In this document: piece after piece, positions 5,774 to 39,944 of the stretch
Layout: the number at the start of each line of letters is the position of its first letter
Position numbering within the stretch: position 1 is the stretch's first letter
From: a virus
Taxonomy: Duplodnaviria; Caudoviricetes
Reading direction: 5' to 3' (one strand)
Virus record (IMG/VR): IMGVR_UViG_3300025784_000006
Location: 96,001 to 160,000 of that record
Length of the DNA: 64,000 nt
Notes under the pieces: generated by a model
The model's database searches: none
The model's input: only the letters and a program-made list of their open reading frames with translations
What the model was told of the DNA's origin: nothing
Program-made: the position numbers and the translations under genes

Positions 5774-5774
5774 G

Positions 5775-8287: not shown

Positions 8288-8295
8288 GATACCTC

Positions 8296-10339: not shown

Positions 10340-10354
10340 GAGGGCCTCTACCCG

Positions 10355-10879: not shown

Positions 10880-10899
10880 CGGAACTCCTTTCCCTCGTT

Positions 10900-19067: not shown

Positions 19068-19102
19068 CTTAACCTAAGCTACCCGAACCCTCTGACAGAG
19101 AC

Positions 19103-20398: not shown

Positions 20399-21035
20399 GG
20401 TCTCCCCACAGGAAGAAGCGCTTGTCCTCCTTGTGGAGAGCGCCCTTCCGCTCGATGGTTCCGGCGAGCGCACCCTTCTTGCGCACTCGCACATCGGTAA
20501 ACTGCTCACGCTCCAGCGTGGTGAGGTCTTGCTCTGCTACCTCACCACGCTGGAGCAACCAGAATCGACAGCCTGTGCGCGCGGCCCACCAGGCGTCTGC
20601 CTGGTGTTCACTCCAGCCGCGCTTCTGCCCCGTGTCTCGCTTGGCGGCCTCCACCATGTCAGCCTTCGTCATCGACCACTTGGGTGGACGCCGAAGGAAG
20701 GCCCGTGCCTGCGCCTTGAGGTGCAGGGGCGACCATAACACGAGGGGGCACCGCTCCTGCCGTAGAGCCTCGCACATGTACAAGAAGACCCCGTACATCC
20801 CCTCCGAGTACGTCTCCCCGAATACCGAGTACTCGGCGGACACGAGGAGGTCCGGGTGCGCACGTACCAACACCCGGAGGCGCTCTCGCAGGTCCACGTA
20901 GCGGTCTACGAACAACGTCGATGACGACGTGCGTAGCTCTCCGCGATCGAGACAGGTGGGGACTCGTCCCGCCTCACACTCCGCTAGTGCCCAGCCGAAG
21001 TGGGTGAGGCTGGGATCGAGACCCAGGACCCTCAT
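20367..21035 (-). CDS. ruvC: RuvC-like Holliday junction resolvase
   Basis: MRVLGLDPSLTHFGWA, SAE, TKADM, HQADA. Confidence 0.85.
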   Translation of the reverse strand: MRVLGLDPSLTHFGWALAECEAGRVPTCLDRGELRTSSSTLFVDRYVDLRERLRVLVRAHPDLLVSAEYSVFGETYSEGMYGVFLYMCEALRQERCPLVLWSPLHLKAQARAFLRRPPKWSMTKADMVEAAKRDTGQKRGWSEHQADAWWAARTGCRFWLLQRGEVAEQDLTTLEREQFTDVRVRKKGALAGTIERKGALHKEDKRFFLWGDHDEEEGTGEG

Positions 21036-21039
21036 CGAG

Positions 21040-21822
21040 CTACTTGAGGCTGCCGATGAGGTTGTCGATCTCCTCCGAGGAGGGAACCGCACCCGCTGCC
21101 GCCGCCGCCGCACCCGCCGCGCCACCACGGCCGCCCGCCGCCGCGCCGCGGATCTTGGCGTCGACCTCAGCAGCGGTGAGCTTGTGGGCGATCTCGCCGT
21201 TGTTCAGCTTCTGGGCGAGCCGCTTGATCCGGTCGAGCATCCCACCCACGATGCGAGCCGCCGCCCCGCCCGGCTCCGAAGCCGCCTTGGTCACGAGCTG
21301 CTCGAACATGTTGCCCTTGGTGTTCCGCACGGTGATCTTCTGGAAGTTGGTGTCCGTGCAGGTCACCATGAGGTCGTTGTCCCCGAGGGGGAACTCGTCC
21401 TGAAGGGCCTTGATGTTGGCGTACTTGTCCTTGTCGAGCAGGACGTACCCGACCTTGGAGTCGGTCTCAATACGGGACGGATCGAGCTTGCCCTTCTGGT
21501 CGGTCGGCCACTGGATGACGATCGTCGCCGCGCTGTGACGCGCCTTGTCGGTACCGGACAGGAACCGACGGTGCGTGTCGTCGTACACGACGTACTGCTT
21601 GATGTGGCTGTTCCAGTAGCGCTCCGCCTGCCACCAGCGAGGAGGCTGCTTGAAGTCGGGGCGCTTCTCAGGCGTCGGGGGGAAGATGACGAACGAGAGC
21701 CGGTAGCTGCGTCCTGACTCGAACTTGATCCGGTCGCCCGAGGCGTCAAGGTCGCGGTCGCCCTGGTCGAAGGTGATCGTGTTCTCGATGGGAACTTCAT
21801 ACGTGAGGCTGAGGTCAGACAT
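21040..21822 (-). CDS. Putative single-stranded DNA-binding protein (gp32-like)
   Basis: DLMVTCTDTNFQKIT, Ala/Gly linker, tail EEIDNLIGSL; recombination context; AGGAG SD. Confidence 0.6.
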   Translation of the reverse strand: MSDLSLTYEVPIENTITFDQGDRDLDASGDRIKFESGRSYRLSFVIFPPTPEKRPDFKQPPRWWQAERYWNSHIKQYVVYDDTHRRFLSGTDKARHSAATIVIQWPTDQKGKLDPSRIETDSKVGYVLLDKDKYANIKALQDEFPLGDNDLMVTCTDTNFQKITVRNTKGNMFEQLVTKAASEPGGAAARIVGGMLDRIKRLAQKLNNGEIAHKLTAAEVDAKIRGAAAGGRGGAAGAAAAAAGAVPSSEEIDNLIGSLK

Positions 21823-21951
21823 GGGGTCTCCTGGCCCGCTCGGGTCGCAGTGAAGGGTTTATGTCACTGAGACGAGGTTCGGTGCGCCCGAAAGCGGTGC
21901 AGAAGACCCTACCCGCGGGGTGAGCGGTTGAGACGACCCTTGTCGTCGACC

Positions 21952-22593
21952 CTAGTAGTTAGGGTCCGCTGGGTCAGCGAGGTTTCCAGAGGGGGGTGGA
22001 AGGGGATACCGAGAGGCGTGAGAACCAGTCCCCCCAGTACCTGATGGAGTGCTGTCGGTCAGGTCCCGGAGCTGCGCGCGTAGGTGGATCCTCAGGTCCT
22101 TGAGGTGCGCGAGCTTGGCGGTGGCGATCTGAAGGATCGTCTCGGCCTCCGTACGGTCCCCGTCCGCCTCCCGCACCATGAGGTGCTCGGCCTGGAGCTT
22201 GATCGACGCGAGCGCGTTTCGATCCGCGATGTTGCGCCCGTTCTTTACTTCCGGGTCGTTAGACACGAGGAGGTCTGTCGCGAGCTTGAGGCCAAGCTGG
22301 AGGTCTCGGTGCCGACTGCGCGCGTGCTGGACCCGCACGCGGGTCGCGCTGACCATCGCGAGACACGAGGAGAGGAACGCCTCGACCTGCGCGATCTTCC
22401 TGCGCAGCACAGGAGCCCCTCCGCTCACTGCGGGGTCCGGGTCGAGGTCTACCGTCATGCCGTCGAGGTCCTTGACGATCTTCTCCGTGGCTTCCCGGTC
22501 CGCCTTAATAGGCGCTGGCGTAGCCTTAGCGAACAGCGCCTGGGCCTTGTCGAGAGGAGTCTCTGGAGCGGGAAGAGTCGTGTCGTCAGACAT
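21952..22593 (-). CDS. Hypothetical coiled-coil protein
   Basis: 213 aa helical. Confidence 0.7.
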   Translation of the reverse strand: MSDDTTLPAPETPLDKAQALFAKATPAPIKADREATEKIVKDLDGMTVDLDPDPAVSGGAPVLRRKIAQVEAFLSSCLAMVSATRVRVQHARSRHRDLQLGLKLATDLLVSNDPEVKNGRNIADRNALASIKLQAEHLMVREADGDRTEAETILQIATAKLAHLKDLRIHLRAQLRDLTDSTPSGTGGTGSHASRYPLPPPSGNLADPADPNY

Positions 22594-22604
22594 GAGGGTC
22601 CCCG

Positions 22605-22919
22605 CTAGGTGCTCTGCGCCGCCCGATTCTGGCGTCGGCGTCCCATGTAAGCTCGGTACAACTCCGTGAGACCCTTGAGACCCGCGGTCAACAGGTCTGG
22701 GGGCATCGTGCGAGAGACGAATCCTCGCTCAAGGATGACCTTGTCTAGCTCGTGCCCTACCTCCATGAGAGCCTCGCAACCCTCCTCGATGGTGAGCCCC
22801 GTGTCTTCCTTCGTCCCACACGACAGACTGACGAAGTGCCCATCGACGGTACGACTGGCCGTTACCTTGTGTACAACAAGACGTGACTTCACGTCGCTGC
22901 TTGGTTGACTCATCCGCAT
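22605..22919 (-). CDS. Hypothetical protein
   Basis: 104 aa, AGGAGG SD. Confidence 0.65.
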   Translation of the reverse strand: MRMSQPSSDVKSRLVVHKVTASRTVDGHFVSLSCGTKEDTGLTIEEGCEALMEVGHELDKVILERGFVSRTMPPDLLTAGLKGLTELYRAYMGRRRQNRAAQST

Positions 22920-25285
22920 GCCTCCTGCGGGGGACTTACCCCGCCCACAGGCAGGACGGACGATCGACGTGCGTCGATCTGCTGGAGGACCCGATCCTTG
23001 AGGTAGGTGGTCCGCGTGTCGTCCCCCGTGCGATAGATCGCAGAGGCGATCGCCTCGTGCGTTCCAACGATGACTACGCGCTTCTTGGCTCGCGTCACTG
23101 CCGTGTACAGGAGACGACGCGTCACCTGGTTTCCGAAGGACGGGAGCAGAACGATCACGACCACCTCGTACTCCATCGCCTGCGACTTGTGGTAGGTGAC
23201 CGCGTAGGCGAGGCGAAGGTACGTAGTGGGCTGGTCCCTGGTGAGCGTCACGATGTGAGGCGGGGACCCGTCGAGTCGAACCTCAACGATGCGCCCTCCA
23301 CCGGTCGTCGTGGCCTCTCGTACCTCCCCCACGTCCCCGTTGTAGACCCCGAGCTCTGCGTCGTTCTTCACGATCATCACTCGGTCGCCCTGTCGGATGA
23401 CTCCGGACGCGACCTTAACCTCCGAGACGTCAGGACCCTTGGGGTTGAGGCGTGTCCGCAGCACCTCGTTGAACCGCGTGACCCCAGCCTCTCCTCCGTG
23501 TCGAGGAGAGAGAAGCTGGACGGCACCGACCCCCTTAGCACCCCGGTACAAGGGGTCGACGACCTCACAGGCCAGGTGCAACGCCTCCTCGTCCGATCCT
23601 GCGTGCAGAAGGCACACGTCGTCCTCCTGCGCTGGGTTGAGCGCCTCCTCCGGCGTCAACACCTCCCGGACGGCCGGAGACCGTCCCTCGTAGATCGCGT
23701 GGGCTGCGAGCACCACCGGACTGGCCATCGTCTGACGGAAGATCCCGTTGAGGTGGACCCGCGGAACCTCATCGACCTGTAGCAGGTCCCGCAGCACGGA
23801 CCCTGGTCCAACGGACGGGATCTGCGCGGGGTCCCCCACGAGGATGATGCGACACTCTGGCCGCGTGGCCGCCAGCGCCCGATAGAAGAGCGACAGGTCC
23901 ATCATCGAGGACTCATCAACAATGAGGACGTCGGCGTCAACGGGGTTAGTAGGCCCGTGCCGCCAGTCGTCCGAGAAGGCGTCGGCAGCGCGCGAGCGAT
24001 TCCCACCCTCCAGACCCACGTAGTCTCCTCCTCGGTCAAGGTTGCGGGAGGGCTGGTACCCAAAAGCTGCGTGGAAGGTGTGCGCGGGAACTCCACACAA
24101 CTGCCGCACACGACGCGCCGCCACGCCGGTCGGAGCCACCGCCAGGACGTTCGCACCGACCTGGTGCAGGGTCGCAACGAGCGCCCGCAGCGTGGTGGTC
24201 TTGCCCGTACCGGGAAGGCCGGTCAACAGGAAGACCGCACACACCAGCGCGTCCCGCAGGCCGGCGCGCTGGGCTGGTGACAAGTGCAGGTGCTCCTGCG
24301 ACAGGACCTCCGCAGCGTCCTCCAAGGTCGCCTTCCCGCTGATCCGCAGCATCGCCTGCCCGATTGGGCTCGCGGGGTGAGGCTTCGCGGTGACGAGGCG
24401 ATCCGCAAGGAGTCGTGCGGACTCCACCTCCCAGTGATGGAGCACCGGCGCGTACACCACAGCCTCTCCGCTTGGTGGGCGAGACAAGATTGCAATCCCC
24501 TGAGAGGGAAGCTGTCGGAGGAGCTCCACGCAACGCTTGGTGTCCCACTCGGGGATCTCGCGCAGCATCTCGGCCACGACCTCCTGCACGCGGACGCAAG
24601 TGTCCCCAGCGTCCGCGTACCGGTCGAGCAACTCCCGCACGAGGATGCGCGCTCGCACCTCAGGCGTAGGGGTGATGCCAAGCGCCTCGGCGAGCCCATC
24701 TACTCGCGGAAGAGAAAGGATCCGCTTCTCCGCGAGGGCCCAGGGGTTCTGGAGGACGATCCCAAGGTCAAGCCCACTCCGCATCGCGGACCAGATCTCC
24801 GAGGTGGACACGTGCGCTCGCCGCATGGCCGCGGTGAGCTTGGCGGCCGTGACGAACCGCTGCCACCCCCGAACGGTGTGCTCCGCAACCTTCGCGCTCA
24901 CACCGGACAACTTCTCGACCTCCTTAGGGTCCCCCCGAAGGATCGCCGTGCTGAGCAACGCGGCGTCCGCGTGGCGTGCCACGAGCAGCATAGCAAGGTA
25001 CTGGACCTCAGAGCCGATCTCGGCCCCGTGAAGCACGACCCTGGGATCCGCAGCGAGCGGTAGCAGGACCGGACCGGGTCGAAGCTGTCGACCCCACTTG
25101 GGGTCCATCGTCTCGGTCGCGTGGATGGCGAGCACGGTCCCCTCTCGAACCTGAGCGGACCCAAACGGCAGGGAACCCACCACGCTGATGGGCCCGTGAA
25201 GGGATGAGGTCGTCTGAAGGACGCAGAAGTCGTCCTTACGATACTGCACGCGATCGACGACGATCGTGATGGGTTTGTTGTCCAC
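22910..25285 (-). CDS. recD2: RecD2-like SF1B helicase
   Basis: QNPWAL, TGLPGTGKTT, APTGVAARR, VDESSM, GDPAQIPSVGPG, FRQ, GDRVM..KND, NGDVG, AYAVTYHKSQ, LLYTAVTRAK. Confidence 0.95.
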   Translation of the reverse strand: MDNKPITIVVDRVQYRKDDFCVLQTTSSLHGPISVVGSLPFGSAQVREGTVLAIHATETMDPKWGRQLRPGPVLLPLAADPRVVLHGAEIGSEVQYLAMLLVARHADAALLSTAILRGDPKEVEKLSGVSAKVAEHTVRGWQRFVTAAKLTAAMRRAHVSTSEIWSAMRSGLDLGIVLQNPWALAEKRILSLPRVDGLAEALGITPTPEVRARILVRELLDRYADAGDTCVRVQEVVAEMLREIPEWDTKRCVELLRQLPSQGIAILSRPPSGEAVVYAPVLHHWEVESARLLADRLVTAKPHPASPIGQAMLRISGKATLEDAAEVLSQEHLHLSPAQRAGLRDALVCAVFLLTGLPGTGKTTTLRALVATLHQVGANVLAVAPTGVAARRVRQLCGVPAHTFHAAFGYQPSRNLDRGGDYVGLEGGNRSRAADAFSDDWRHGPTNPVDADVLIVDESSMMDLSLFYRALAATRPECRIILVGDPAQIPSVGPGSVLRDLLQVDEVPRVHLNGIFRQTMASPVVLAAHAIYEGRSPAVREVLTPEEALNPAQEDDVCLLHAGSDEEALHLACEVVDPLYRGAKGVGAVQLLSPRHGGEAGVTRFNEVLRTRLNPKGPDVSEVKVASGVIRQGDRVMIVKNDAELGVYNGDVGEVREATTTGGGRIVEVRLDGSPPHIVTLTRDQPTTYLRLAYAVTYHKSQAMEYEVVVIVLLPSFGNQVTRRLLYTAVTRAKKRVVIVGTHEAIASAIYRTGDDTRTTYLKDRVLQQIDARRSSVLPVGGVSPPQEACG

Positions 25286-25289
25286 AGTT

Positions 25290-25910
25290 CTACCTTGCTA
25301 TAGCTATTCGGCTGCTCGACGGAACGAGCACCTCCCGCAGGTTGCGGATCGACCTGACCCAAGATGGTACCTGTCGCCCTGACAGGATGACCCGCGACCC
25401 TTGCGCGATCGAGCGCGAGACGACCTCTCTCGCAGCCGAGCCCCACGTGTCCACCGAGGGCGCGAGCAGCATACCTGACGACACACTACCCATGAGGGGG
25501 CAGTCCCAACCCCCCAGAAAGAGATCCCCCGCGGGGTTGCAGAGGACTCCGCGCGCACCCGAGTCGTCGGGCTGGAAGTCGCACCCGACCCCCCACAGGC
25601 GCACGGATGCGCCCCCAAGCTCCACGATGGCCGGGTTCTTCCAGCACGTTGCGGACGCGAGGTCTGGTCCTATGAGCTTCCCGTACGTGTAGGCGGTCAC
25701 CGCGCAGGGCGCGATGCGCATCCACATCGGATCAACCTTGCGGATGTGGTGTGGAAGCTCCAGCATCGCGGCCAGCAGCAGGAGCAGCGCGTCGCGTCGC
25801 GGTCCGTCAGCCCCAACCACGAAGGTGACTGTCCCGGCCTGCCATACGGCCTCCACCGAGGGTTGTATGTGGGTCCGAGGTACACGGACCCGTACGTGCA
25901 GGGGTGTCAT
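25290..25910 (-). CDS. Hypothetical protein
   Basis: ATGA coupled to the holA-like gene. Confidence 0.6.
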   Translation of the reverse strand: MTPLHVRVRVPRTHIQPSVEAVWQAGTVTFVVGADGPRRDALLLLLAAMLELPHHIRKVDPMWMRIAPCAVTAYTYGKLIGPDLASATCWKNPAIVELGGASVRLWGVGCDFQPDDSGARGVLCNPAGDLFLGGWDCPLMGSVSSGMLLAPSVDTWGSAAREVVSRSIAQGSRVILSGRQVPSWVRSIRNLREVLVPSSSRIAIAR

Positions 25911-26926
25911 CTCGGTGGGGTCGAGATGGCCCCTCCGGTCCGAGCTGCGGCATGAAGGATCCCCGCGCTCAAGACAGCCCACGGCGCGCGCGCCCCTGAC
26001 CGAAGAGCGCGGTCAGCCCTCGCAGCCACCTCGACGAGGTCTCTTCCACCCGCGACACCCCATCGCAGGGCCGCGGGCCGAACGCGTATCTTCACTACGT
26101 AGGGGTGCGCACCGACGGCCTCTCCGACCTCCTGGTCGTTCCCCTTGTGGGCCGCCGCACACATCCACTGGTAGCCGCACCTCGACACGACCGCGGCGAC
26201 GCGCGCGACCGGCGGGGTCCGCGACGCCCTCCGCAGCCCCGCTAGGGTGTGCGCGATCCGGCGGACGTCACGATCCGCCAGGGCCCCTACGAAGTCCTCG
26301 ACCTCCGACCGACCTCCCAGGGGGTCCACCGCGCGCGCGTCCTCCGCCCCCGCCCCCCTGTGCCCGCGCGCCGCGCAGTACCACGCGACCTTCTGGCACT
26401 CCATCCCGAGCCGCCCGAGATCCACCAGCCCACCGTCCACCAGGGCCTCCGCCGCACCCTCATCCCGCAGTCCGAGCCGCCCAAACTCGGTCTTGGCGAA
26501 CTGTACGGCCCTCGCACGCGCCTCCCAGGGCTTCCCGGCCGGGAAGCAGAACCTCCGCCCCTTGGGGATCTTCTCTGCGACTCGCCCGAGCGGCGAGTCC
26601 TTGGGCACGTCCCCCTGGAACTCCACGAGCAGCACCCGCACGTCCTTGGCGAACGCCTGAAGTGTGCCCCACCCGGGTGCCGGGTCGACCTCCGTGAGGT
26701 GCAGCGACACCCGGTCCTCACCGTCGAAGTCCGGTGCGGTGACCTCCTCGATCGTCCCTACAGCCGTCCCTGGACCCAGACGCACCCAAGGAGTGCGCAC
26801 CCGCGCCACGATCCCATCGACGGCACGCACGCGCAACGCCGCCTCCATCCCCTCCACGAGAATGAGGTTGTCAGGCGGGTCCCCAAGCTCTGAGATGACC
26901 GGAGCCTTCTTCCTTGGCTTCTTCAT
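25907..26926 (-). CDS. holA: DNA polymerase III delta-like clamp-loader subunit
   Basis: AAEALVD...DLGRLGMECQKV, EDFVGAL, GAHPYVVK, ADRALRSG match the HolA pattern. Confidence 0.75.
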   Translation of the reverse strand: MKKPRKKAPVISELGDPPDNLILVEGMEAALRVRAVDGIVARVRTPWVRLGPGTAVGTIEEVTAPDFDGEDRVSLHLTEVDPAPGWGTLQAFAKDVRVLLVEFQGDVPKDSPLGRVAEKIPKGRRFCFPAGKPWEARARAVQFAKTEFGRLGLRDEGAAEALVDGGLVDLGRLGMECQKVAWYCAARGHRGAGAEDARAVDPLGGRSEVEDFVGALADRDVRRIAHTLAGLRRASRTPPVARVAAVVSRCGYQWMCAAAHKGNDQEVGEAVGAHPYVVKIRVRPAALRWGVAGGRDLVEVAARADRALRSGARAPWAVLSAGILHAAARTGGAISTPPR

Positions 26927-27540
26927 GCGCCTACCAGAACCCACAGGAGCTCGACGCGGCTCGTCCGCGCCCCGCGCAGCGCTTGCCTCGCGCGCCGCCA
27001 CACCTCCAAGTCCGCCGGGTCTCCAGAGCACGCTACCTCCGCGACCCCCAGGAGAAGGTCACGGGGCTCCAGTCCCTCTACGATCTTCCCCACCTCCCAT
27101 GGCTCCGTGCGGGCCACTCCCATAGCCCGCCTCACCGCCGCCTCCACCTCCGGGGAGGGCCCCGTTGGTCCAGGCGCGTAGGCCACCAGCGCCCGCGAAC
27201 GTAGCGCCGGAGGAACCGACGCGACGTCGTTCGCCCACGCGAACACCGACACCCCGCCCGTCAGGTCTTCGGTCGCCTTGAGCAGCGCGTCCCCCGCCCG
27301 AGGCAGCGTGTCGTCCAGCGGACCCACCACCACCGCGCTCGGCCGGTCCCCCGGCGGAGACCCCGACAACAGGTCCGCCAGGTCGCGGGCAGCCTCTGCC
27401 TTGAGCCCACCCTCTGGGCGCACCTCGGCCCGCACGACGTACTTCGACTCGACCAACCGACGCACATGCACCTCCGCGCCAGGCCCATGCACGAACACGA
27501 AGCGCGCACCCCGTCGATCCTGCGTGTGATCCATCATCAC
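26923..27540 (-). CDS. holB: DNA polymerase III delta-prime-like subunit (short)
   Basis: LKAEAARDL, AGDALLKATED, VPPALRSRA; adjacent to holA. Confidence 0.65.
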   Translation of the reverse strand: MMMDHTQDRRGARFVFVHGPGAEVHVRRLVESKYVVRAEVRPEGGLKAEAARDLADLLSGSPPGDRPSAVVVGPLDDTLPRAGDALLKATEDLTGGVSVFAWANDVASVPPALRSRALVAYAPGPTGPSPEVEAAVRRAMGVARTEPWEVGKIVEGLEPRDLLLGVAEVACSGDPADLEVWRRARQALRGARTSRVELLWVLVGA

Positions 27541-27617
27541 GCACGACTACCCGTCCGACCCATCGGGTCGGACCTGGTCGCGTCGAGAAGCGACCCTACC
27601 AGCGATGTCAAAGAACA

Positions 27618-27641
27618 TGTCTGACCCGCGCGGGTCAGACA
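27618..27641. repeat. Perfect 24-bp palindrome
   Basis: TGTCTGACCCGCGCGGGTCAGACA. Confidence 0.95.
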
Positions 27642-27776
27642 CCCCGTACTGCTTCGTGGTGAGCTCGTCAGGCTCGGGCACTGGACGGAGCAGGGTCAAT
27701 TTGCCGTTACGGCGCGGACAGGCTCGGTCATCGTGCAGACGATCGTATGGTGTCTTGGCCTCCACGTTGGCACGTT

Positions 27777-27834
27777 CCTTGCTACTACTGTTGGAGGTAG
27801 TGGGGGTGGTGAGGATCGTGGTGATCGTGGTGGT
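27777..27834. repeat. 58-bp direct repeat, copy 1
   Basis: CCTTGCTACTACTGTTGGAGGTAGTGGGGGTGGTGAGGATCGTGGTGATCGTGGTGGT, identical to 28397-28454. Confidence 0.95.
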
Positions 27835-28340
27835 TGCGGTGGGGACGGGGAGGTGTTGGTTCGTCCATTCGGGCTCTTGGACCACAGCCCTGTGACGCTT
27901 GCTCCACTCACCTCGAAGGGGCAACTCGCTACCACGGCCGCTAGAGACGGAATCGGCCGGAGCTCCCCTCCTGGGTCCTCCTCCTGGAGCTCAACGCCCT
28001 GGTAGTGCGGGGTTGGGCGAGGTAGGACACGCCGTAAGGAGCGATCATGTTCCGCCCAGAGGGGTCCGTCCAATCTCGGACCTGCTTGGGTGGTCTGCCC
28101 TCCATGAGGGCGGTGCGGCATCTCCTTCCTGGGAGATGCCGCGGGCCTCGACTATTCGGTTGGCAGATGGACGGGAACCGGCAGCTCGCTCTCAGCTCAA
28201 CGGCTTCTGCACCCTCTCGGGCTGCCCTCGGCGTCGCCGCGCCCCGTGGTCTGGGGGTCGGTCTTGACAGGTCCTCTCCGCCCTTCGGGAAAGAGGATGC
28301 CGGGCACTACGGACCTTTTACGGCCCGCGGTTCGCGTCTG
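27835..28340 (-). ncRNA. Candidate large structured non-coding RNA (strand tentative)
   Basis: No convincing ORF; many stems, a long-range CCGCGGGCC/GGCCCGCGG pair, an H-type pseudoknot, GGGTA box at 28352-28348. Confidence 0.35.
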
Positions 28341-28396
28341 CCCTTCTTACCCAGAACACGCACAAGGTGCAAGCGATCGATCGCCGGCCTGTCGCC

Positions 28397-28454
28397 CCTT
28401 GCTACTACTGTTGGAGGTAGTGGGGGTGGTGAGGATCGTGGTGATCGTGGTGGT
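28397..28454. repeat. 58-bp direct repeat, copy 2
   Basis: Identical to 27777-27834, 620-bp offset. Confidence 0.95.
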
Positions 28455-28590
28455 GCAGAGAGTGAGATAAATCTCACTCTCCTCCAAGATCTAGTACGAG
28501 GGAGGGAAGCATCAAGCGGGGAGGAAGGTCTCGAAGCCTAGTGAAGGTGCGAAGCACCTTCCGTCATCGCTGCGACAGCAGCCCTACGAG

Positions 28591-28682
28591 GAGGGCCGCT
28601 AGGGGAGGAGAACCGGAGGGCCGCTAGGGGAGGAGGAAGGGAGAGCCGCTAGGGGAGGAGGAAGGGAGGGCCGTTAGGGGAG
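28591..28682. repeat. 25-bp tandem repeat x3.7, iteron-like, purine-rich
   Basis: Consensus GAGGGCCGCTAGGGGAGGAGGAAGG at 28591, 28616, 28641, 28666. Confidence 0.9.
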
Positions 28683-28684
28683 AC

Positions 28685-29893
28685 CTAGTCCTCGTCGCGG
28701 TACTGAGGATCGACGATCTTGATCGTCGGACTGCCGTGGGTCACGCTGGTCACTCCAAACGGGTTCGGACGATCGAAGAACTCCTGGATGTCCTCCCGCG
28801 AGTAGCCCCGCCGGTCTAGCTCCTTGGCGATCGTCGACTTGATCTTCGGGTCGGTGCGCAGCCGCTCGGTAAACTTCATGAGCATCGGTAGCGCATGCCG
28901 CTGCTTGACGGTCGATCGCGCCACACCGAGGTCGTCGGCAACGTCTCGCAGCTTGGGGATCACGAGGCGACGCACCGGGCCGTCAGGGCCGTCGACCACG
29001 ACGTGGTTCTCCGGGTCCTCCATCTTGTCGAGCAGGTGCAGCATGGGGGGCTTCTCAGCCCGCGCACGCCCGTTCTCGCTGGGTGCACGCCTCTGAGCAC
29101 GTCCGCCGTAGGCGTCCTCAAACGTCTGACGCATCTCCGACCTGATGAACTTCCCGAGCGGGTCGTGTGGGTCGTGGAAGCTCGCCCGCACGACCTCGTT
29201 GATGGTCGGCTTCTCGTCGTCGGACTGAAGCTGGTCGAGCGGACTACGCTCCTTCCCCTCATCATCCCGCGACGGACCCTCCCGTCGCGTCTCATCCTGC
29301 TTACGCTGCTTGGCGATGTCCTGCACGCGACGCCTGACCATCTTGGTCAGCAGCGCGAACGCACGCCTGACGGGCACCTCCCCCTTCATGAGGTCGTTCG
29401 CCAGCAACTCACCAGCCGACCGCGCGTTCGACTTCAGTACCTGCCCGTCTTGACCAGGCTGCCGGCCGGGCTTGGCCATGAGCTCCGCTACCGCGTCCTC
29501 GCCCTGTGCGTCCCCCATCCCGTACTGCTTGGCGAGACGGATCGCCCCCTCCGTCAGGTAGCGGTACATGTTGATGTACCCACTCGTCCCAGGTCGAGTG
29601 AACCACCCCGACTCGCGTAGTTGGCGGGCCACATCGGGTTCGATCCCGTTCTCCACGGCCTGCATGGGGTTCATCTTGTTCGACCAGGACCCAAACGGCT
29701 TACCAAACGCCCCCTCCATCAGGATCGCACGCAGCGTCGCGTCAAGCCGCGCATCCATCGAGGTGGACGCCGCGACGGCCCAGGAGGCCGCGACGCGTGC
29801 TGCCATCGACTGGGCTGCGTTTGGCGACGCCTCTTGGAGGACTGCGTGGGCCACGCGCCTTCGATGGCAAAGAGCAGCGACGGGGTGTGTCAT
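28685..29893 (-). CDS. Divergent sigma-factor-like protein
   Basis: Region-2-like GEDAVAELM...LTKMVRRRVQDIAK; HTH LRDVADDLGVARSTVKQR; AGGAG SD. Confidence 0.6.
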   Translation of the reverse strand: MTHPVAALCHRRRVAHAVLQEASPNAAQSMAARVAASWAVAASTSMDARLDATLRAILMEGAFGKPFGSWSNKMNPMQAVENGIEPDVARQLRESGWFTRPGTSGYINMYRYLTEGAIRLAKQYGMGDAQGEDAVAELMAKPGRQPGQDGQVLKSNARSAGELLANDLMKGEVPVRRAFALLTKMVRRRVQDIAKQRKQDETRREGPSRDDEGKERSPLDQLQSDDEKPTINEVVRASFHDPHDPLGKFIRSEMRQTFEDAYGGRAQRRAPSENGRARAEKPPMLHLLDKMEDPENHVVVDGPDGPVRRLVIPKLRDVADDLGVARSTVKQRHALPMLMKFTERLRTDPKIKSTIAKELDRRGYSREDIQEFFDRPNPFGVTSVTHGSPTIKIVDPQYRDED

Positions 29894-30108
29894 CCAGATT
29901 CTCCTAGTCAGACTCGTGTGATAAGCGATCCATCACCGATTGATGTGGACTTGCCTGGGTCGGGAGCCTCGATATTGCAACCCTATTAGATCTCCTGTCA
30001 ATCAGGACCTTCACACCGTCGCGGACAAATCCTCGCCAGGGGTGCGGGGAACTCAGCTCCAGGGGTACCTCCCAGGGAACCCCTGGGGGCTTGTTTACTG
30101 GAGGTTCC

Positions 30109-31614
30109 ATGAAGAAGTGTTCGCGTTCAGTCTTGCCAGCTATCGCCGCCTTGTCCATGTGCCCCCAGGAGACCGTATCTCCTGTTGCTGCTGCTTTCCG
30201 ACACGTACGCGCTGAGGGGTTGAGCCTGGTTGAAGACCAGGGCGCGCGCGCGGCTTCGCTGCGCAGGGCGGTCACCACAGCGATCGCCCGCGAGTCCTCG
30301 GACCAGCTGTACGTGCGGCGCGCTGGGGAGGGGGTTTCGCTCACGCGTGCCGGTGCCGCGTTGGCTATCTACCAGACCGGTCGCCCACCCGTTCCGCTAG
30401 GCCCCTTCGAGATGCCCCGCGCCACCTTGCTGGCCGATCGGTTACAGCACCTGGCGGAAGCCGGCGCAGAACCCCGCGTCTTGACCGTCTCAGACCTCGG
30501 CCTGACGGTCATCGACGACCTCGTGGAGGTAGATCGACCCCCGCGGACTCCCGACGACGTGCGTCGCGTCGAGAGCGCGACCTTCGATGCAGTCGCGCGC
30601 CTGCGCCTGAGTCGAGGGGTCGCGCTGCGTCGGGTGGGGCGCACCCACGTGTCCATCGGAGGGACGGCCGACCCGCTCGCTGACGCCTCCGCGAGGGTTC
30701 TCACGGCGACGACAGCCCATCCTGCGGGCCTGACGCGCCGTGAGATGCAGGGGGTGATCTCGTCCGCCGGGATCCCCGCAGGGCGCATGGCCGACCGCGT
30801 GCTGCGAGCCCTGCGGTTGACTCCGGGGGGCCCGTGGATCGAGCGGTCCTCGTCGAAGTCCCTCGTCTGGACGCTGACCGATGCAGGTCGCGACGCCCTG
30901 GCGGCCGTTCGCGCGGAGGTCGTTCCCGTCCTGGAGGTCGAGCGCAACGCGACCGCCCGCTGGTTCGACACCCACATGGCGGCTCTGTACCCGATCCTGG
31001 AACGCAAGATCCGGCAGCGGTGCCAGGTGTCTCACTACATCGGGACCACGATGGACCATGTGCAGGAGTACCTACACCGCGCCATTCGTCGAGATGCGTT
31101 CCGGTCTCGTCTGGAGGCGGGGCAGTCGATCCCCCTGTCCCAAGTGGCCGTGTACGCGCTGCGTAGCGCACAGAACGACATTCGCAACTCTGGGTCCGAA
31201 CCCGTGTGCCGCGAGCTCTACGGGGCGCGCACGGAGAAGGAGGTGAAGGGCGGCGAGGGGCCGGATCGAGACCGCAACACCTGGCGCAAGTCCGCGCGCG
31301 GGCGCGGCGTACGATCCGACGAGGGGTCGGTCGTCGACATGGCGGAAATGGCGGACGGAGGCACGACCACACCGAACCTTGACGAGACGCTCGCCTTCCA
31401 GCAGGTGTGGTCTCGCCTAGAGGTCCACATCCGCAAGACCTTCGCACCCAGCGAGATCGACCTCATCCTCGCGTTCCTCCGCGCGCGCGTCGAGGGGGCC
31501 TCGATCGCTGAGACCGCCTCCTCCCTCCACATCGAACCCGGTCGCGCCCAGGTGCTCCACCGCCGCATCCGCAGCGAGCTAGGGGACGTGGTCCGCTCGC
31601 TTACCTCCGCCTAG
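30109..31614 (+). CDS. Sigma-factor-like protein with N-terminal winged-helix-like extension
   Basis: GGAGG SD; MDHVQEYL...VYALRSAQNDIRN; GASIAETASSLHIEPGRAQVLHRRIR; wHTH-like WTLTDAGRDAL. Confidence 0.65.
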   Translation: MKKCSRSVLPAIAALSMCPQETVSPVAAAFRHVRAEGLSLVEDQGARAASLRRAVTTAIARESSDQLYVRRAGEGVSLTRAGAALAIYQTGRPPVPLGPFEMPRATLLADRLQHLAEAGAEPRVLTVSDLGLTVIDDLVEVDRPPRTPDDVRRVESATFDAVARLRLSRGVALRRVGRTHVSIGGTADPLADASARVLTATTAHPAGLTRREMQGVISSAGIPAGRMADRVLRALRLTPGGPWIERSSSKSLVWTLTDAGRDALAAVRAEVVPVLEVERNATARWFDTHMAALYPILERKIRQRCQVSHYIGTTMDHVQEYLHRAIRRDAFRSRLEAGQSIPLSQVAVYALRSAQNDIRNSGSEPVCRELYGARTEKEVKGGEGPDRDRNTWRKSARGRGVRSDEGSVVDMAEMADGGTTTPNLDETLAFQQVWSRLEVHIRKTFAPSEIDLILAFLRARVEGASIAETASSLHIEPGRAQVLHRRIRSELGDVVRSLTSA

Positions 31615-34600
31615 TCCTCGTCGTCCTCATCAGGCATCGCGTACGCCAGCAGAGCCGCACGCGGGCACTCCGCGCGACTCGCGTGCTCGCGCAGGAAGCT
31701 CGCAACCTTGCTGGCGTCCTTCTTGTCGAGCAGGTCGCTCGCGATCGTGCCAGCCTCCCGCTCGAGGTCCGCACACGCGCGCAGCCCGAGGTCCGAAGCG
31801 CGTTCCCCCCACCCGTAGAGACCACCCGACTCGCCGGCCCGGCGCGGGGCCCCCTTGCCGTTGAGCGCACCGGCCTCCTCAAGCTCGTGGGCCAGCAGCC
31901 CCGCCGCCCGGCACCCCTTGCGGGCACGGGCGCGCAGGAAGGCGAGCACCCGCGGGTCCCGGTCGTAGGCCGCCCGCGCCAGCCGCGCCGCCGCCTTGGC
32001 GACGCGCTTGCTCGCCGTCTCGATCGTCTTCTCGACCCGCTTGGGGTAGCCGTAGAGCCCCGAGGCGGCCTCGCGGTCCGTGGTGAGGTCGCTCGCCACC
32101 GGCGCCGGCCGCTCCATCATGAGCGCTAGGTCGATCGCCATCGCGGCGACGCGCGGCCCCATGGGGTCCTCGGCGACCTCGGACGCCACGAACCGATGCT
32201 GCGGCATCCGAACCGCGCGGTGGAGTTTCGCGCCCGCGTTGGACGCCTCAATCAGTGCGTCCAACGCGCGACCGATGATCTTGTGCAGAGCCTGCTCCCC
32301 CGCATCGGAACTTTTCTTGAGAACCTCGTCTGCTCGCATAACCTTCGCGCGCCACTCGGCCTTCCAGCGTTCGGCGAGCTTGTCGAGCTCCAAACCAAAC
32401 AGAATGAGCGGCGTGAGGTCCACCTGCATCTCGGCACCGGCCGCCTTGAAGTTGTCCTTGTGGATCTCGTGCTGCTTCTTCCACTCGGCCTTGTCCTCGG
32501 GGGACATGTCCTGCGTGGGGTCAGCGGGCTTGCCCTCCTCGAACTTCGCCAGCTCCTCGAGGGCGGCCATCTCGTCGACGGGTTCCGTCGTGCGTTGTCC
32601 TTCCTGCATCTTCTTGATCTCCTCTGTGGGGTCGAGCGTGGGGTCCACGCCATCCGTCCCTGTCTTCGGGAGAGAGGTGCGCAGCCACGACGGGCGGACG
32701 GAGTCAGGTCCCTTCTGGTAGGTCTGCGCGTACGACAGCGCCATCTTGAGCGCGTGCGCCTGGCGCAGCCTCTTGAGGACTCCCTGGTCCTCCGACCCGA
32801 GGTCCATGCTCAGCCGGCTGAGGCTCAGGTTGTACTCGAAGGCAGCCGCGAACGCGCTGTGAAGCGCCGTGGGGCTCATCCCTACAGCCTCCGTGATGAT
32901 CCCTCGGACCGTCTTGTCGCGCAGCAGCTGGTTGTCCGTGATGTTCTTGACGGCGGGAAGCGGTCGGCCGAGGAACTCCTTGATCGCAGCGGGTACGGGC
33001 GGAGGCTGCGTGGACGCGCTCCGGCTCGACACGGGCTCGACGCGGTCGCGGGTCACCCCTCCGTCCCTGGTGAGGTCGCGCACCCACTCCCCGACCTCGT
33101 AGACGAACGAGGGGCCTGACATCTTCCCCAGGTCCCCAAGGCCCATCGACTTCGCGTTGTCCCGGACGAGGTCGTCCGGGTTCCTCCCGTGCACGATGTA
33201 GACGTTCTTCGCCTCGAACCACACGCGGGTCACCCCGTCGGGGGTCGTGGCGAACGGGGGGTCGGAGTCGGTGTCGACCTCCCACCGCTCCTGCCGCAGG
33301 TGGTCGAGGATCCGCTGACGCTCCGGGTCGAGACTCTTGGCGACGCGCGCCGTGAACTCGCTCCGGTGGATCGCGTTCTGCTTCTCCCACTCCGCCTTGT
33401 CCTCCTCGGACATCTGCTCCGTGGGGTCGGCGGGCTTCCCCTCCTCGAACTTCGCCATCTCCTCCAGCGCGAGGAGCGGGTCGTCCCCGCCAGCCTTGGG
33501 CTTCGAGTCCCTGATGATTCCCTTGGCCCAGGCGGGACGCTTCTCGGGCTTCGCGCTTCGGACGAGGTGCGCCCCAGAGAGTGCCCGGTGCACTGCGTCG
33601 GCCTGCTTGAGGGCGCGGACGAGCTCAGGGTCTGGGTTCCCCTCGTTACGTACCTTGTTCTTCAGGGTGATGAAGTAGTCGAAGGCGACCCCGTACGCGT
33701 CGGTGAGATCCTCCACGGACAGCGTCTTCAGCGCGTCGACCATGAGGGCCTTCAGGACCGGGTCATGGTCCGGCACTAGGTTCCCGGCCCCATGGGGTCC
33801 CGCATCCTCGGGCGTGTTGGGGTGGAAGAAGCGTCGGATCTTCTGCGGGGCCATGACGCGGTGGATGCTCATGGCGTCCGCGCTATCTTGAGCCAGTACC
33901 TCCAGCGCGACGAGCGGGTCCTCCTCAGCCGTCTTGGTCAGCCAGTCGGGACGCCCATCCGGTTTGTCGCGCAGCTTCTGCGCCTGCACGAGGGTCTGGA
34001 ACAGGGCGTTTGCCTGCTGGAACGCGTGCGCGATTTCTCTGTCTGGCTTGTCCTGCTCGCTCCGCTTGTGGAGGTCCGTCACGTAGTCGAGCGCGTCCCG
34101 GTAGGTCTTCCGGAACCCCTGCGGGGAGAGCTTGACGGCCTCTCGGATGACCCCCTGGAGCTTCGGGTCCGTAGGGAGCTTGGTGGCGTCGAACCGCTGG
34201 ATAGCTGGCATCCCCTTGTCCAGGAACTCCTTGAGAGTCTTGGGTGCGTAGGAGTGGTGGATCATGAACGCCTTGGTGCCGGGGCGTACGTGCTCGATTC
34301 CTGTCCCCTCGCCCTTGGACCCACCTCCCCCCGAGGGACGCGAGACCGTGTGGTTCGCAGGGTCGGCGTTCGGGTGCTCCTTGAGGTACTTCTGCTTGTC
34401 CTGCTCGCTCGGGTGCTCCATCGCGGTGCGGTGGGACAGGTCCCGCTCGTCGAGCGCTACTCGTAGCCACTCGGGTAGCTGCGAGTGGCGGTAGTTCATC
34501 ACCAGGTTGGCCGCCGTGTACAGGTTCGAGAGCTTGTTCTTGGCCACCTCGCGCCCCTTCTTGTCCTGGACGTCGATGTCGGCCTCCTGCCAGAAGTCGA

Positions 34601-35357
34601 TCGCCTGGTCGTACACGTTGCCCACCGACACCTTGAAGCGACGCGCCTCCGGCTCGGTGACGTAGTCCTTGCCCATCTCGATCATGACTTCCCGAACGTC
34701 AGCGTCCCGCTCGAGCTGGGACGCGTTACGCGCGTCCTTGGGCATCCGGTCGGCGCGGCGCTGGATGATCGCGTCCGTGGTGAGCTCTCGCACCACCTGA
34801 ATGGCCCGGTCCTCCGGGGTCAGGGCGGCCGTCTTGAGTGTGTATCCACCCTTGCGCAGGAGCGGCATGAGCCATCGCTTGGTGGAGTCGTCTAGCTTCC
34901 CGTCCTCGACCTCCGGGGCGATCTGGCGGGCCTGGTTCGCCGCAGAGAAGAACACCTGGGCGCGCCTCGCCGCGGCGAGAAGCCCGCTCTCTGGGCTCGC
35001 CTCCTTGCGGACCTCAAGCCACCGCTCAAGAAGCGGCTGCTGGTAGTCCTTGAACGCCACCTGGGTCAAGCGGAACATCGTGTCAGGATGGTTGAGGTAG
35101 TCGGCGACGAGGTCCGCGACAAGGGGTCTGGTCAGGTTCGACCGCAGGACCTCTGCGGCCCCCCAGTTTTTCGCGGGAATGGTGTGCTTCTGGAAGTAGG
35201 GTCGTAGCGCCTGGGGGAGGTGCGCGTTCTCGATGTCGAGGTTGGACATCTCGGGCGTGACGGCGTCGGCCCATGAGGGTCCAAAGTGGCCCGCCGTCTT
35301 GACGCGGGGGTCCTTGTGGAGCGTTGCGATCTCGGTCGTCAGGGCTGCGATGGTCAT
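31611..35357 (-). CDS. 1248-aa modular protein, probably virion-associated, with repeated domains
   Basis: ATGA coupling, GAGGAG SD; five copies of a helical module, two AKFEEGKPADPT repeats, two GLYG repeats. Confidence 0.85.
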   Translation of the reverse strand: MTIAALTTEIATLHKDPRVKTAGHFGPSWADAVTPEMSNLDIENAHLPQALRPYFQKHTIPAKNWGAAEVLRSNLTRPLVADLVADYLNHPDTMFRLTQVAFKDYQQPLLERWLEVRKEASPESGLLAAARRAQVFFSAANQARQIAPEVEDGKLDDSTKRWLMPLLRKGGYTLKTAALTPEDRAIQVVRELTTDAIIQRRADRMPKDARNASQLERDADVREVMIEMGKDYVTEPEARRFKVSVGNVYDQAIDFWQEADIDVQDKKGREVAKNKLSNLYTAANLVMNYRHSQLPEWLRVALDERDLSHRTAMEHPSEQDKQKYLKEHPNADPANHTVSRPSGGGGSKGEGTGIEHVRPGTKAFMIHHSYAPKTLKEFLDKGMPAIQRFDATKLPTDPKLQGVIREAVKLSPQGFRKTYRDALDYVTDLHKRSEQDKPDREIAHAFQQANALFQTLVQAQKLRDKPDGRPDWLTKTAEEDPLVALEVLAQDSADAMSIHRVMAPQKIRRFFHPNTPEDAGPHGAGNLVPDHDPVLKALMVDALKTLSVEDLTDAYGVAFDYFITLKNKVRNEGNPDPELVRALKQADAVHRALSGAHLVRSAKPEKRPAWAKGIIRDSKPKAGGDDPLLALEEMAKFEEGKPADPTEQMSEEDKAEWEKQNAIHRSEFTARVAKSLDPERQRILDHLRQERWEVDTDSDPPFATTPDGVTRVWFEAKNVYIVHGRNPDDLVRDNAKSMGLGDLGKMSGPSFVYEVGEWVRDLTRDGGVTRDRVEPVSSRSASTQPPPVPAAIKEFLGRPLPAVKNITDNQLLRDKTVRGIITEAVGMSPTALHSAFAAAFEYNLSLSRLSMDLGSEDQGVLKRLRQAHALKMALSYAQTYQKGPDSVRPSWLRTSLPKTGTDGVDPTLDPTEEIKKMQEGQRTTEPVDEMAALEELAKFEEGKPADPTQDMSPEDKAEWKKQHEIHKDNFKAAGAEMQVDLTPLILFGLELDKLAERWKAEWRAKVMRADEVLKKSSDAGEQALHKIIGRALDALIEASNAGAKLHRAVRMPQHRFVASEVAEDPMGPRVAAMAIDLALMMERPAPVASDLTTDREAASGLYGYPKRVEKTIETASKRVAKAAARLARAAYDRDPRVLAFLRARARKGCRAAGLLAHELEEAGALNGKGAPRRAGESGGLYGWGERASDLGLRACADLEREAGTIASDLLDKKDASKVASFLREHASRAECPRAALLAYAMPDEDDED
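32515..33456 (-). repeat. Intragenic duplication encoding AKFEEGKPADPT...MS.EDKAEW
   Basis: Near-identical 36-bp cores at 32515-32550 and 33421-33456. Confidence 0.9.
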
Positions 35358-36205
35358 CGTGTACTCCTCGGTAGGCGGGCGGCCTCGTCGGCGACGTACC
35401 ACGCGACGCGCGCCTGCTCTCCGGCCCTCACCCGCACCGCGGGCGAGGCTGTCTTGTGTGTGACGAGGGACTCCAGGTAGTCGCGCGTCGTCCCCGCTAG
35501 CTCCCGCAGCGCCGCCGGCTCATGCTGTGCGCGCAGGTCGCGGACCACCTTGGCAACCTGCGGGTCGCGCAGGATGCGCCACCGCTGGGGCCCCGCATGA
35601 TCTACAGGGGGCAGGCAGGCCAGCAGCGTGAGCACCTCCGGCGGGGCGGACCCCAGGTGCAGGACCTCCACCCGGTTGGGTAGGTCCCTCGTCGATGCAA
35701 CCTTCCCTCCGCGGGGGATGTCGCGCTCGACGGCCATCGCGGTCCGTCGTACCAGGTACTTCTCTCCCGGCTCGTACCACTTCCGGTAGAAGTCCTCGCG
35801 CGGCACCTCTCGCACGACCTCCTCCGGGTTTGGGATGTTGGGGTCCGCGACCATGACAGTCCCGTCGTCGCTCACGTCGAACACGCAGGAGGCGTGCCCC
35901 CACGGCCGCCCCTCCGGGCACCACGCGATGAGGACCGGGATGCCCTGGTCCGTCCACTCCTTGATTCGGTCGACCGTGCAGGGGCACACGAGCGTCACGC
36001 GCGCTCCGAAGTACTGGGCGGTGGCGATCGCCTGGTCCCACGCGGCCCCGCGTCCTGGAACGGCCCCAAGGATCTCGTCGACCGAGTCCTCGTCGCACCG
36101 CACTCCAACCGCCTTGAGCGCCATCGCGAGGGATGCGGCTACGCACGAGTACTGCGTGCGCTGGCGCACCGGATCGACGTTCGCTCTTGCTGCCTTGGAC
36201 GTCAT
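35354..36205 (-). CDS. Peptidase C39-like cysteine protease fused to the repeated helical module
   Basis: VRQRTQYSCVAASLAM (Q...C), WGHASCV (H), VADPN (D), VPREDFYRKW; AGGAG SD. Confidence 0.85.
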   Translation of the reverse strand: MTSKAARANVDPVRQRTQYSCVAASLAMALKAVGVRCDEDSVDEILGAVPGRGAAWDQAIATAQYFGARVTLVCPCTVDRIKEWTDQGIPVLIAWCPEGRPWGHASCVFDVSDDGTVMVADPNIPNPEEVVREVPREDFYRKWYEPGEKYLVRRTAMAVERDIPRGGKVASTRDLPNRVEVLHLGSAPPEVLTLLACLPPVDHAGPQRWRILRDPQVAKVVRDLRAQHEPAALRELAGTTRDYLESLVTHKTASPAVRVRAGEQARVAWYVADEAARLPRSTR

Positions 36206-36213
36206 CGCGACTC

Positions 36214-37533: not shown

Positions 37534-37573
37534 CTGTACGGGGGTGTCTCATACCCACGCTATCGGGGAAGCG

Positions 37574-37777
37574 TCAGGCGGATATGCGTTGAACCTCGTC
37601 ACGGCCAGTCGCCCGCGCGAGCAGGGCACGCAGGGCAATACGTACGCCGTCCTCTACTCCCTGGAGGTAGGTCCGCGCGTTTCGCCCGGTTCCCTTGGCT
37701 GCGTTGACCCCGCAGGCGGCGGCAGCGTCCCGCTGGATGTCCTCGATGATCTTGTCGATGTTGGCTTGGCCGCTCAT
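37574..37777 (-). CDS. Small hypothetical protein
   Basis: 67 aa, ATGA coupled to groEL, GGGTA motif upstream. Confidence 0.6.
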   Translation of the reverse strand: MSGQANIDKIIEDIQRDAAAACGVNAAKGTGRNARTYLQGVEDGVRIALRALLARATGRDEVQRISA

Positions 37778-39359: not shown

Positions 39360-39944
39360 TTGCTCCAAAGCTCTTACTACTACATCAAGACCGAGTCTGG
39401 TGCCGTTCACGCGGCTGCCGCCTGCCGTCTTGGCGACACGGACGGATACCTCGTCGTGTCTCCTGACCAACGGGTTGCGCAGTTCACACGGTCCGTCGCC
39501 CACATGCGCAGCGACACTCCAACCCTTGCGCTCCTGCTGTACTGGAAGGCGGTGCAGACTTTTGGTCGGAACCTCCCGGTCGTGCGCGAGGCCCGTATGC
39601 CGTGCACCGCATGTGGAACGTGGGCCCCTACGGGTGTGTTCGACCCCACGCAACTGTGCCCCGCGTGCAAGGTACGTCGCACTGTCACCTGCACGTCGTG
39701 TGGGACCGAGGTGAGGGCCGAGGCGTGTTTGGAGGACCGTTGCCTGTCCTGCTGGACTGTCACCTCGTTGCTGCGCAGGTTCGGGGAGGCCCCAAACGCG
39801 CCGCGCGGGAGCTTCGACGAGACGGGTCGGATAGAGGAGGTAGGCAAGCGGACGCCCGCCCCTCGTCGACGACGCGTCGTGATGATGACGTCGGCGATCG
39901 ACCCTGAGTCCTCCGACTCAGAGTCAGAATCCTCCGACGACTAG
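39360..39944 (+). CDS. Zn-ribbon protein (start uncertain)
   Basis: CTACG, CPAC, CTSCG, CLSC; TTG start after GGAG. Confidence 0.6.
   Translation: MLQSSYYYIKTESGAVHAAAACRLGDTDGYLVVSPDQRVAQFTRSVAHMRSDTPTLALLLYWKAVQTFGRNLPVVREARMPCTACGTWAPTGVFDPTQLCPACKVRRTVTCTSCGTEVRAEACLEDRCLSCWTVTSLLRRFGEAPNAPRGSFDETGRIEEVGKRTPAPRRRRVVMMTSAIDPESSDSESESSDD

Follow-up and report, generated by a model that had tools for sequence, protein, structure and literature searches.

The 64,000-nt stretch of viral DNA analyzed here (Duplodnaviria; Caudoviricetes; hereafter the window) comprises bases 96001–160000 of the 202,778-bp (~203 kb) IMG/VR virus record IMGVR_UViG_3300025784_000006 (66% G+C content), the completeness of which is 83% according to CheckV. 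The window contains a gene-free gap at positions 27541–28684, in which a 562-bp segment (27835–28396; segment X) is bracketed by two exact 58-bp direct repeats (DR1, 27777–27834; DR2, 28397–28454); both genes flanking the gap are encoded on the minus strand, which is thus the gene-sense strand of the gap. The gap is non-coding, and base pairs predicted for its minus strand are conserved in a strand-specific manner, within 27850–28028 only and as judged from one variant (P < 5e-5 to ~0.01, depending on the control). The reading that we favour, and to which we would give about an even chance, is a structured untranslated RNA of the sense strand that probably controls transcription into the replication genes located downstream.

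Relatives of the locus were seen indirectly, i.e. as contigs of run X5 and through open reading frames (ORFs) predicted on relatives: P0008 and P0011 are minus-strand ORFs across DR1, and P0009, P0012 and P0013 are plus-strand ORFs extending from ~28148 across DR2. The informative variant is X5 record 18, a strain that is ~85% identical over 27687–28101 (44 differences, 21 gap letters; 40 of the 44 differences are listed, and 32 of the listed ones are located inside X) and ~96% identical over 28174–28271 (4 differences in 98 nt); between these parts, 70 unlike letters take the place of 28102–28173 (72 nt). For a test of base pairing, the reference sequence of X was folded without the variant, and the 32 substitutions (in 27835–28062) were then mapped onto the predicted pairs. 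In the minimum-free-energy (MFE) structure of the minus strand 14 pairs were touched, 10 of which still pair. Five of the six pairs changed on both sides preserve pairing: A-U to G-C at 27857/27906; U-A to C-G at 27917/27969, 27993/28014 and 27994/28013; and G-C to U-G at 27997/28011. Of the eight one-sided changes, five exchange a G-U pair for G-C or A-U or the reverse, which would give mismatches on the other strand. Permutation of the substituted positions reached five two-sided kept pairs in 0 of 20,000 trials (P = 1e-4 for four or fewer broken pairs), and circular shifts, which keep the clustering of the substitutions, reached five in 3 of 227 cases (P ~0.01); when the 3' partners were slid by 1–3 nt, 0–2 were kept and 8–12 were broken. 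Of the 17 pairs touched in the plus-strand MFE structure, 11 break and six still pair (not significant). A two-sequence alifold yielded z-scores of −2.85 for the minus strand and −1.4 for the plus strand.

The supported helices are 28018–28009/27999–27989, in which four consecutive pairs are changed and all still pair, 27971–27954/27934–27915, and 27906–27904/27859–27857; they are part of three predicted minus-strand hairpin domains (28028–27975, 27971–27915 and 27914–27850). From P0009, two G>A changes can be inferred in the core (28219 and 28230), which, as assigned by hand, would convert C-G to U-G on the minus strand. An original prediction, made by a model from the letters of this stretch, had proposed a structured RNA on the minus strand. 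The choice of strand was right, and the pair-preserving double changes agree with structure in the left half of X (27850–28030), but the supported helices are not the stems that had been named: the GAGCTCC/GGAGCTC stem has two uncompensated changes (27986 and 27988), the CTACCA/TGGTAG and CGGCCG/CGGCCG stems do not vary, and the proposed minus-strand pseudoknot loses a terminal pair in the variant. A proposed long-range pair (28139–28147/28322–28330) is unused in the MFE fold, and chance alone should produce about one such 9-nt complement in 562 GC-rich nt (our estimate, not a computation).

Folding energies are strand-dependent in the left part of X, with z-scores of −2.36 and −1.97 for the minus strand (the MFE structure represents 24–28% of the ensemble) and of +0.24 and +0.41 for the plus strand. 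For the whole 562-nt segment the z-scores are −1.77 for the minus strand (3 of 100 shuffles as good) and −0.22 for the plus strand. Hairpins at 28097–28111, 28115–28142 and 28272–28297, all three of which had been predicted from the letters, are present in the MFE fold, and the surrounding region 28090–28180 reaches z-scores of −4.7 and −4.1 on the two strands (0 of 200 shuffles as good).

The lack of coding capacity was assessed with the same relatives. Codon-usage-based gene calling left 27886–28684 open, or 27541–28684 (~1.1 kb) if the weak ORF 27547–27885 is dropped. This only called ORF (P0007) is frameshifted and truncated in the relative's P0008, which departs from the reference frame after '...LTLL' and then stops; the plus-strand ORF has two frame changes in P0009, which starts in one frame, continues in another and crosses DR2 in yet another; and a small minus-strand ORF (28307–28197, 36 aa) would lose its GTG start in the relative (H-to-L change, read by hand). 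X5 record 18 carries 1-nt indels at 27912, 28005 and 28010, and its listed substitutions are distributed over the three codon phases as 14/15/11 (of 40) and, inside X, as 11/12/9 (of 32). No periodicity of G+C at third codon positions was detected over 28050–28330, none of the four longest ORFs of the gap matched a protein family, and a phmmer search with the 141-aa minus-strand ORF against 1.84 billion representatives returned one low-complexity match (34 residues of a 1361-aa protein). The non-coding nature that had been proposed for the stretch is therefore borne out by frameshifts, indels, even codon phases and missing periodicity, and no conserved coding signal was found.

Two candidate coding explanations were rejected. 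The ORF 27547–27924 (minus strand) is in frame with the holB-like gene downstream (26923–27540), with a TAG and two codons between them; read-through of the TAG would join the two, but the ORF is not conserved, and read-through from this weak ORF across DR1 into the holB-like gene seems unlikely because the ORF is frameshifted in the relative. X as an insertion in a small gene that could be restored by recombination between the repeats was discarded likewise, since the flanking ORF is frameshifted in the relative.

The gap is the largest gene-free one in the window, the next two being 365 and 310 nt long. It had been described as the only large gene-free stretch, which holds at the scale of the window; elsewhere in the genome there are other large gaps, most of them due to tRNA genes. 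ARAGORN predicted 44 tRNA genes in the whole genome (genome positions 171311–189437, outside the window, and 3092–3167), mostly in one minus-strand array, and further gaps of 0.8–1.0 kb without called gene or tRNA are located at genome positions 10124–11149 and 169754–170580.

Known promoter types are absent from the gap. A scan of 27000–29200 for sigma-70-like promoters yielded no site, and the only motif proposed earlier as a promoter of the RNA, GGGTAAGAAGG, does have a second exact copy (28342–28352 and 57804–57814, both minus strand), but this copy ends 4 nt before a GTG at 57799 and therefore looks like a Shine–Dalgarno site; the copy in the gap is not followed by a start codon, and the gene at 57799 was not confirmed as a sigma factor by Pfam. 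The phage itself has a very clear promoter-like motif genome-wide, in which CAGCTC precedes ATG by exactly 30 nt (45 copies, against 0–7 for each of the spacings of 26–35 nt around it and a chance expectation of ~1.7); the consensus is gTCAGCTCC, ~16 nt, tCGACta, ~6 nt, C-ATG. The motif implies many leaderless mRNAs and a recognition pair other than that of sigma-70. Examples in the window are located at 17891(−), 44618(+), 47015(+), 50142(+), 53025(−) and 57840(+). In the gap, the position weight matrix of this motif reaches at most 2.5 (plus strand) and 3.7 (minus strand), whereas true sites mostly score above 10; two CAGCTC words at 28182 and 28193 were considered as a plus-strand promoter and rejected, as a −10 part or second element is missing and the matrix score is 2.5. 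The promoter of its own that had been attributed to the RNA was thus not found, neither of the sigma-70 type nor of the phage type.

The direct repeats that had been said to bracket the segment were found as an exact 58-bp pair, 620 bp from start to start, with two copies only in the 202,778-bp genome, of which it is the sole perfect long direct repeat. The arrangement is not an assembly artefact: independent unitigs span it in run X4 (27499–28004; left flank, DR1 and X) and in run X8 (28219–28588; X, DR2 and right flank), a k = 141 contig of a metagenome-assembled genome (MAG) has the same order of repeats and X, and the unitig depths in run X1 (flanks, 9.6–13.9; X, 14.7; repeat, 33.2) agree with X being present once and the repeat twice. 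The relative's DR1 has a length of 76 nt and differs from the reference by two 9-nt insertions and two substitutions. The translation of this variant DR1 is identical to that of P0008/P0011 at DR1 (25 of 25 codons) and to that of P0009/P0012/P0013 at DR2 (24 of 24 codons), whereas the translations of the reference repeat and of the relatives' repeat share only runs of 9 residues; hence, both copies carry the same derived changes. Judged from these sequences, this indicates concerted evolution, in which gene conversion or a shared constraint keeps the two copies the same. Template and variable repeats of a diversity-generating retroelement were rejected as an interpretation, as the copies are identical to each other in both lineages. 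X nevertheless persists between these recombination-prone exact repeats in either lineage of this RecA-encoding phage.

On the minus strand the repeat is rich in C and poor in G (C 26, G 7, A 18 and U 7 of 58), a composition within the top 0.5% of all 58-nt windows of the genome, and in a partition-function fold it is the least paired part of the gap (mean pairing probability, 0.44 for DR2 and 0.49 for DR1; 0.60–0.82 for other parts). Rho uses C-rich, G-poor, unstructured and untranslated RNA, with rut sites of ~60–80 nt. A similar composition is found at the upstream end of the gap, where a 25-nt tandem repeat (28590–28682; 3.7 copies, 91% matches) starts right after the stop of the upstream gene; it is C-rich and G-poor on the minus strand (C/G ratio up to 4.25) because it is GGAGG-rich on the plus strand.

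In the favoured reading, the gap would be the untranslated part of a minus-strand transcript, and the RNA, probably lacking a promoter of its own, would arise when transcription of the upstream gene for a 402-aa protein reads through. C-rich, G-poor and poorly paired tracts (the 25-nt repeats, DR2 and DR1) would alternate along this transcript with structured parts, and it would fold into hairpin domains, three of them at 27850–28028. Between the tandem repeat and DR2, a near-perfect palindrome (28458–28481, minus strand) forms an 11-bp hairpin that is kept in the relatives' P0009, P0012 and P0013, within a region of strong folding on the minus strand (28440–28580; z −3.89, 0 of 200 shuffles as good). 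Inside X it is followed by a variable segment (28306–28396, minus strand) with the GGGTAAGAAGG box and a 12-bp palindrome (28373–28384), which is diverged and ~56 nt longer in the relative (our count from two translations), and then by the most conserved core (28150–28305, minus strand; the two plus-strand CAGCTC words are located here), of which 28176–28304 is identical in 41 of 43 residues in an arbitrary frame, with a 1-nt indel at ~28174–28176. Two adjacent strong hairpins, with a 6-bp stem and a perfect 11–12-bp stem (28097–28142; MFE fold and shuffles), separate the core from the three supported domains.

The region would end at an 11-bp hairpin (27642–27617, minus strand) followed by GUUCUUUGAC, which is the sole terminator-like site in 27000–29200 and is located 77 nt before the start of the holB-like gene, the first of the clamp-loader-like genes. 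Its U-rich tail (27605–27617, minus strand) reads UGUUCUUUGACA, with a 12-nt word that is unique in the genome. The RNA would thereby exert cis-acting control over elongation or termination, as an insulator or as a conditional terminator/antiterminator that times the reading of the replication genes; transcription of the gap, the role in elongation control and the rut-like role of the repeats are what we infer. A further 9-bp hairpin (27551–27584, minus strand), with a chance-level match to a CRISPR direct-repeat model (E 0.8), is located just upstream of the next start codon.

The put RNA of phage HK022 (PMC9378689) belongs to the antitermination and terminator control regions of this kind. 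The lambda nut/tR1 region with its rut sites is another. Like these, the gap would give an untranslated sense-strand RNA within a long phage transcription unit, and would combine stem-loops beside C-rich unstructured tracts with a terminator-like hairpin ahead of later-expressed genes. The differences are in size (>0.7 kb for the element in the gap, ~70 nt for put), in the flanking direct repeats, which are not known as a feature of nut or put, and in the absence of any sequence or model match found.

Several points weigh against an untranslated control RNA. None of the runs in which the stretch was detected (20 run rows) is an RNA run, so that transcription was not observed. Four of the changed minus-strand pairs break, the stricter control by circular shifts yields only P ~0.01, and the covariation is that of one variant contig, with a second, partly known one sharing 11 of the changes; because 40 of the 44 differences are listed, up to four more pairs could be broken. 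Structure in single-stranded DNA (ssDNA) would fit the same data, as G-T pairs form there as well. The strongest hairpins (28097–28142), which are missing from the variant through replacement, are as good on one strand as on the other, and the core (28150–28305) folds no better than shuffled sequences (z −0.19 to +1.67), so that it may be a DNA or protein-binding site. Terminator-like patterns are as frequent as expected by chance (7 found in 18001–38000, 7.2 expected). The direct repeat has the general features of rut sites and would be only rut-like, and the tail UGUUCUUUGACA may likewise be no more than similar to the boxA word of antitermination sites in rRNA and phage transcripts; when the literature was searched for a printed boxA consensus that includes the tail word, the only matches were to unrelated primers. 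With one lineage and one informative variant, the case is thin.

We see a rather small chance that the region represents a large structured RNA of a new class, which is enclosed by C-rich direct repeats that co-evolve and acts on the transcription machinery to time the replication genes, for example as a decoy for Rho or a sigma factor or through processive antitermination by RNA; the repeats would then have a function in loading or pairing instead of being scars of recombination. If true, RNA structure that is conserved on one strand ahead of replication genes would provide an entry point to timing in poorly understood huge phages and add a large RNA class without a counterpart in Rfam; co-evolving exact repeats are in themselves an unusual feature.

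A discrete, trans-acting non-coding RNA (ncRNA) of ~0.5–0.75 kb, with an unrecognised promoter near 28340–28400 and a 3' end at the 27642–27617 hairpin, is essentially what had been proposed at the outset, and we regard it as unlikely. It would draw on the same minus-strand structure and on the same terminator-like hairpin downstream on that strand, and retention of the segment in every strain seen, as well as CCUCC-like words in the accessible C-rich repeats, which could pair with purine-rich targets, are in its favour. The promoter evidence set out above speaks against it, i.e. no sigma-70-like site, low matrix scores for the phage motif, and a candidate box that is located in a segment diverged and lengthened in the relative and whose other copy resembles a ribosome-binding site. 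The statement that no known RNA family is recognizable was confirmed: none of the covariance models of Rfam 15 (including tmRNA, RNase P, group I/II introns, GOLLD, ROOL, 6S and riboswitches) matched the 64-kb window at gathering score, and ARAGORN predicted neither tRNA nor tmRNA in the window; at E ≤10, Rfam gave three chance-level matches in 27400–28800 (a CRISPR repeat and two miRNA models; 15.7–19 bits). GOLLD and ROOL, large and ornate ncRNAs of phages and prophages (bioRxiv 10.1101/2024.12.08.627333), are like this candidate, a putative multi-helix ncRNA of several hundred nt in a tRNA-rich phage genome, but unlike them it has no Rfam match even at E ≤10, was seen in one narrow lineage only and is in part poorly conserved.

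The region might also be a functionless spacer, i.e. a decayed gene or a recombination scar, with hairpins that are only terminators and with pairs conserved by chance in GC-rich sequence. The modest z-score of the whole segment, the ~15% divergence and many indels in the left part of X, the wholesale replacement of the two strongest hairpins, and the narrow distribution, with no relatives in three collections, would all fit; we consider it improbable nonetheless, as pair-preserving double changes exceed those of all 20,000 permutations and of 224 of the 227 shifts, the core (28174–28305) is far more conserved than its surroundings, and X is kept between its repeats in both lineages.

RNA-primed origins of replication are known from ColE1 (RNA II) and T4 (R-loop origins), and the original prediction had considered a replication-primer RNA. 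The gap is like these origins in that a candidate structured transcript is located next to replication genes, and unlike them in that it shows no promoter, AT-rich region or skew signal. As an origin or priming site, it would use the 25-nt repeats as iterons for a neighbouring initiator and the hairpins as ssDNA or R-loop primer structures; the tandem array (3.7 copies) is located beside a gene with weak helix-turn-helix (HTH)-like leads, replication genes follow downstream, and the G-T-tolerant conservation of pairs would also fit ssDNA of the same strand. Since there is no AT-rich unwinding stretch (G+C content 0.61–0.67 across the gap), no turning point of the cumulative GC skew at 123–125 kb, no repeated binding word besides the tandem array and the direct repeat, and no match of the 402-aa protein to an initiator family, we find this distinctly improbable, and an RNA-primer role of the segment is not supported.

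An excisable cassette, in which X and one repeat would form a 620-bp unit that recombines by attL/attR or in the manner of PeSL mini-circles, is very unlikely: exact direct repeats do flank X, the copies co-evolve as they would after repeated excision and re-insertion or gene conversion, and mini-circles from nearby repeated cassettes are described for T4-type phages (PMC2839356), but no contig joins across X in four runs (contigs cannot show absence), no empty-site ORF was found, neither Phage_integrase nor Resolvase was matched in the record (83% complete), the genome has just two copies of the repeat, X encodes nothing, and the unitig depths fit a single copy of X. PeSLs of T4-type phages combine a sigma-70-like promoter with terminator stem-loops, occur many times per genome and flank ORFs (PMC2839356, PMC4122927), and exchanges between nearby repeated cassettes of these phages make mini-circles (PMC2839356). 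The present locus is like them in that a short segment has copies of a non-coding motif on either side, which could plausibly recombine, and unlike them in that the direct repeat lacks promoter and terminator features, has two copies and flanks non-coding sequence.

DNA near-identical to all or part of the stretch was found in activated-sludge and wastewater metagenomes (20 run rows, 13 studies). Around the locus, 11,953 bp match positions 1–11953 of a 155-kb k141 contig (L002) at 100% identity; this contig is from a MAG labelled Verrucomicrobiota, probably represents phage DNA that was binned together with a bacterium, and hence is not evidence for the host. No close cultured phage was found: neither blastn with 27500–28800 nor tblastn with the 402-aa protein matched any of them, and the cultured-phage matches of the RecD-like helicase and of a 1248-aa protein were ≤46% identical (helicase <30%). 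Searches of viral contigs for related loci with the 402-aa, 205-aa and 1248-aa proteins returned none; a 5-sequence alignment of the 402-aa family found no relative in viral contigs and metagenome contigs, and its sole match in genome contigs was the 100% identical contig of the Verrucomicrobiota MAG. The exact 28-nt core of the direct repeat had 0 matches in the viral and metagenome contig collections.

Nearly every gene around the locus is without a family. The upstream gene (28685–29893, minus strand) encodes the 402-aa protein, which has no match in Pfam, PHROGs or NCBIfam and matches no initiator family; a language model gave weak leads to sigma-70/HTH-like proteins (Atlas feature scores 0.84–0.86, bar 0.9), the AlphaFold2 (AF2) model is of low confidence (pLDDT 54) and yielded no meaningful fold match (best Z 5.8, on a single helix pair, in a wide VIA search), and a profile search against PDB sequences gave only chance matches to Rab (E 0.03). 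Relatives of this protein, with 56–70% identity, were found only on short Logan contigs. The downstream gene (26923–27540, minus strand) encodes a 205-aa protein with weak similarity to HolB in family searches, and is followed by a weak holA-like gene, the RecD-like helicase gene and recA (19103–20398, minus strand). The placement of the segment upstream of holB, as originally stated, is therefore fair, given that weak holB- and holA-like genes are located just downstream of the gap.

Other features of the window include a GroEL-like chaperonin (37774–39240, minus strand), a protein with weak kinase-domain matches to lanthionine-synthetase models (39941–41659, minus strand), and a perfect 58-nt palindrome (43581–43638) within a predicted minus-strand gene. 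The gene for the 1248-aa protein contains a 125-nt direct repeat (32442–32565 and 33348–33471; 83% identity, 906 nt apart), the sequence of which suggests an internal protein repeat.

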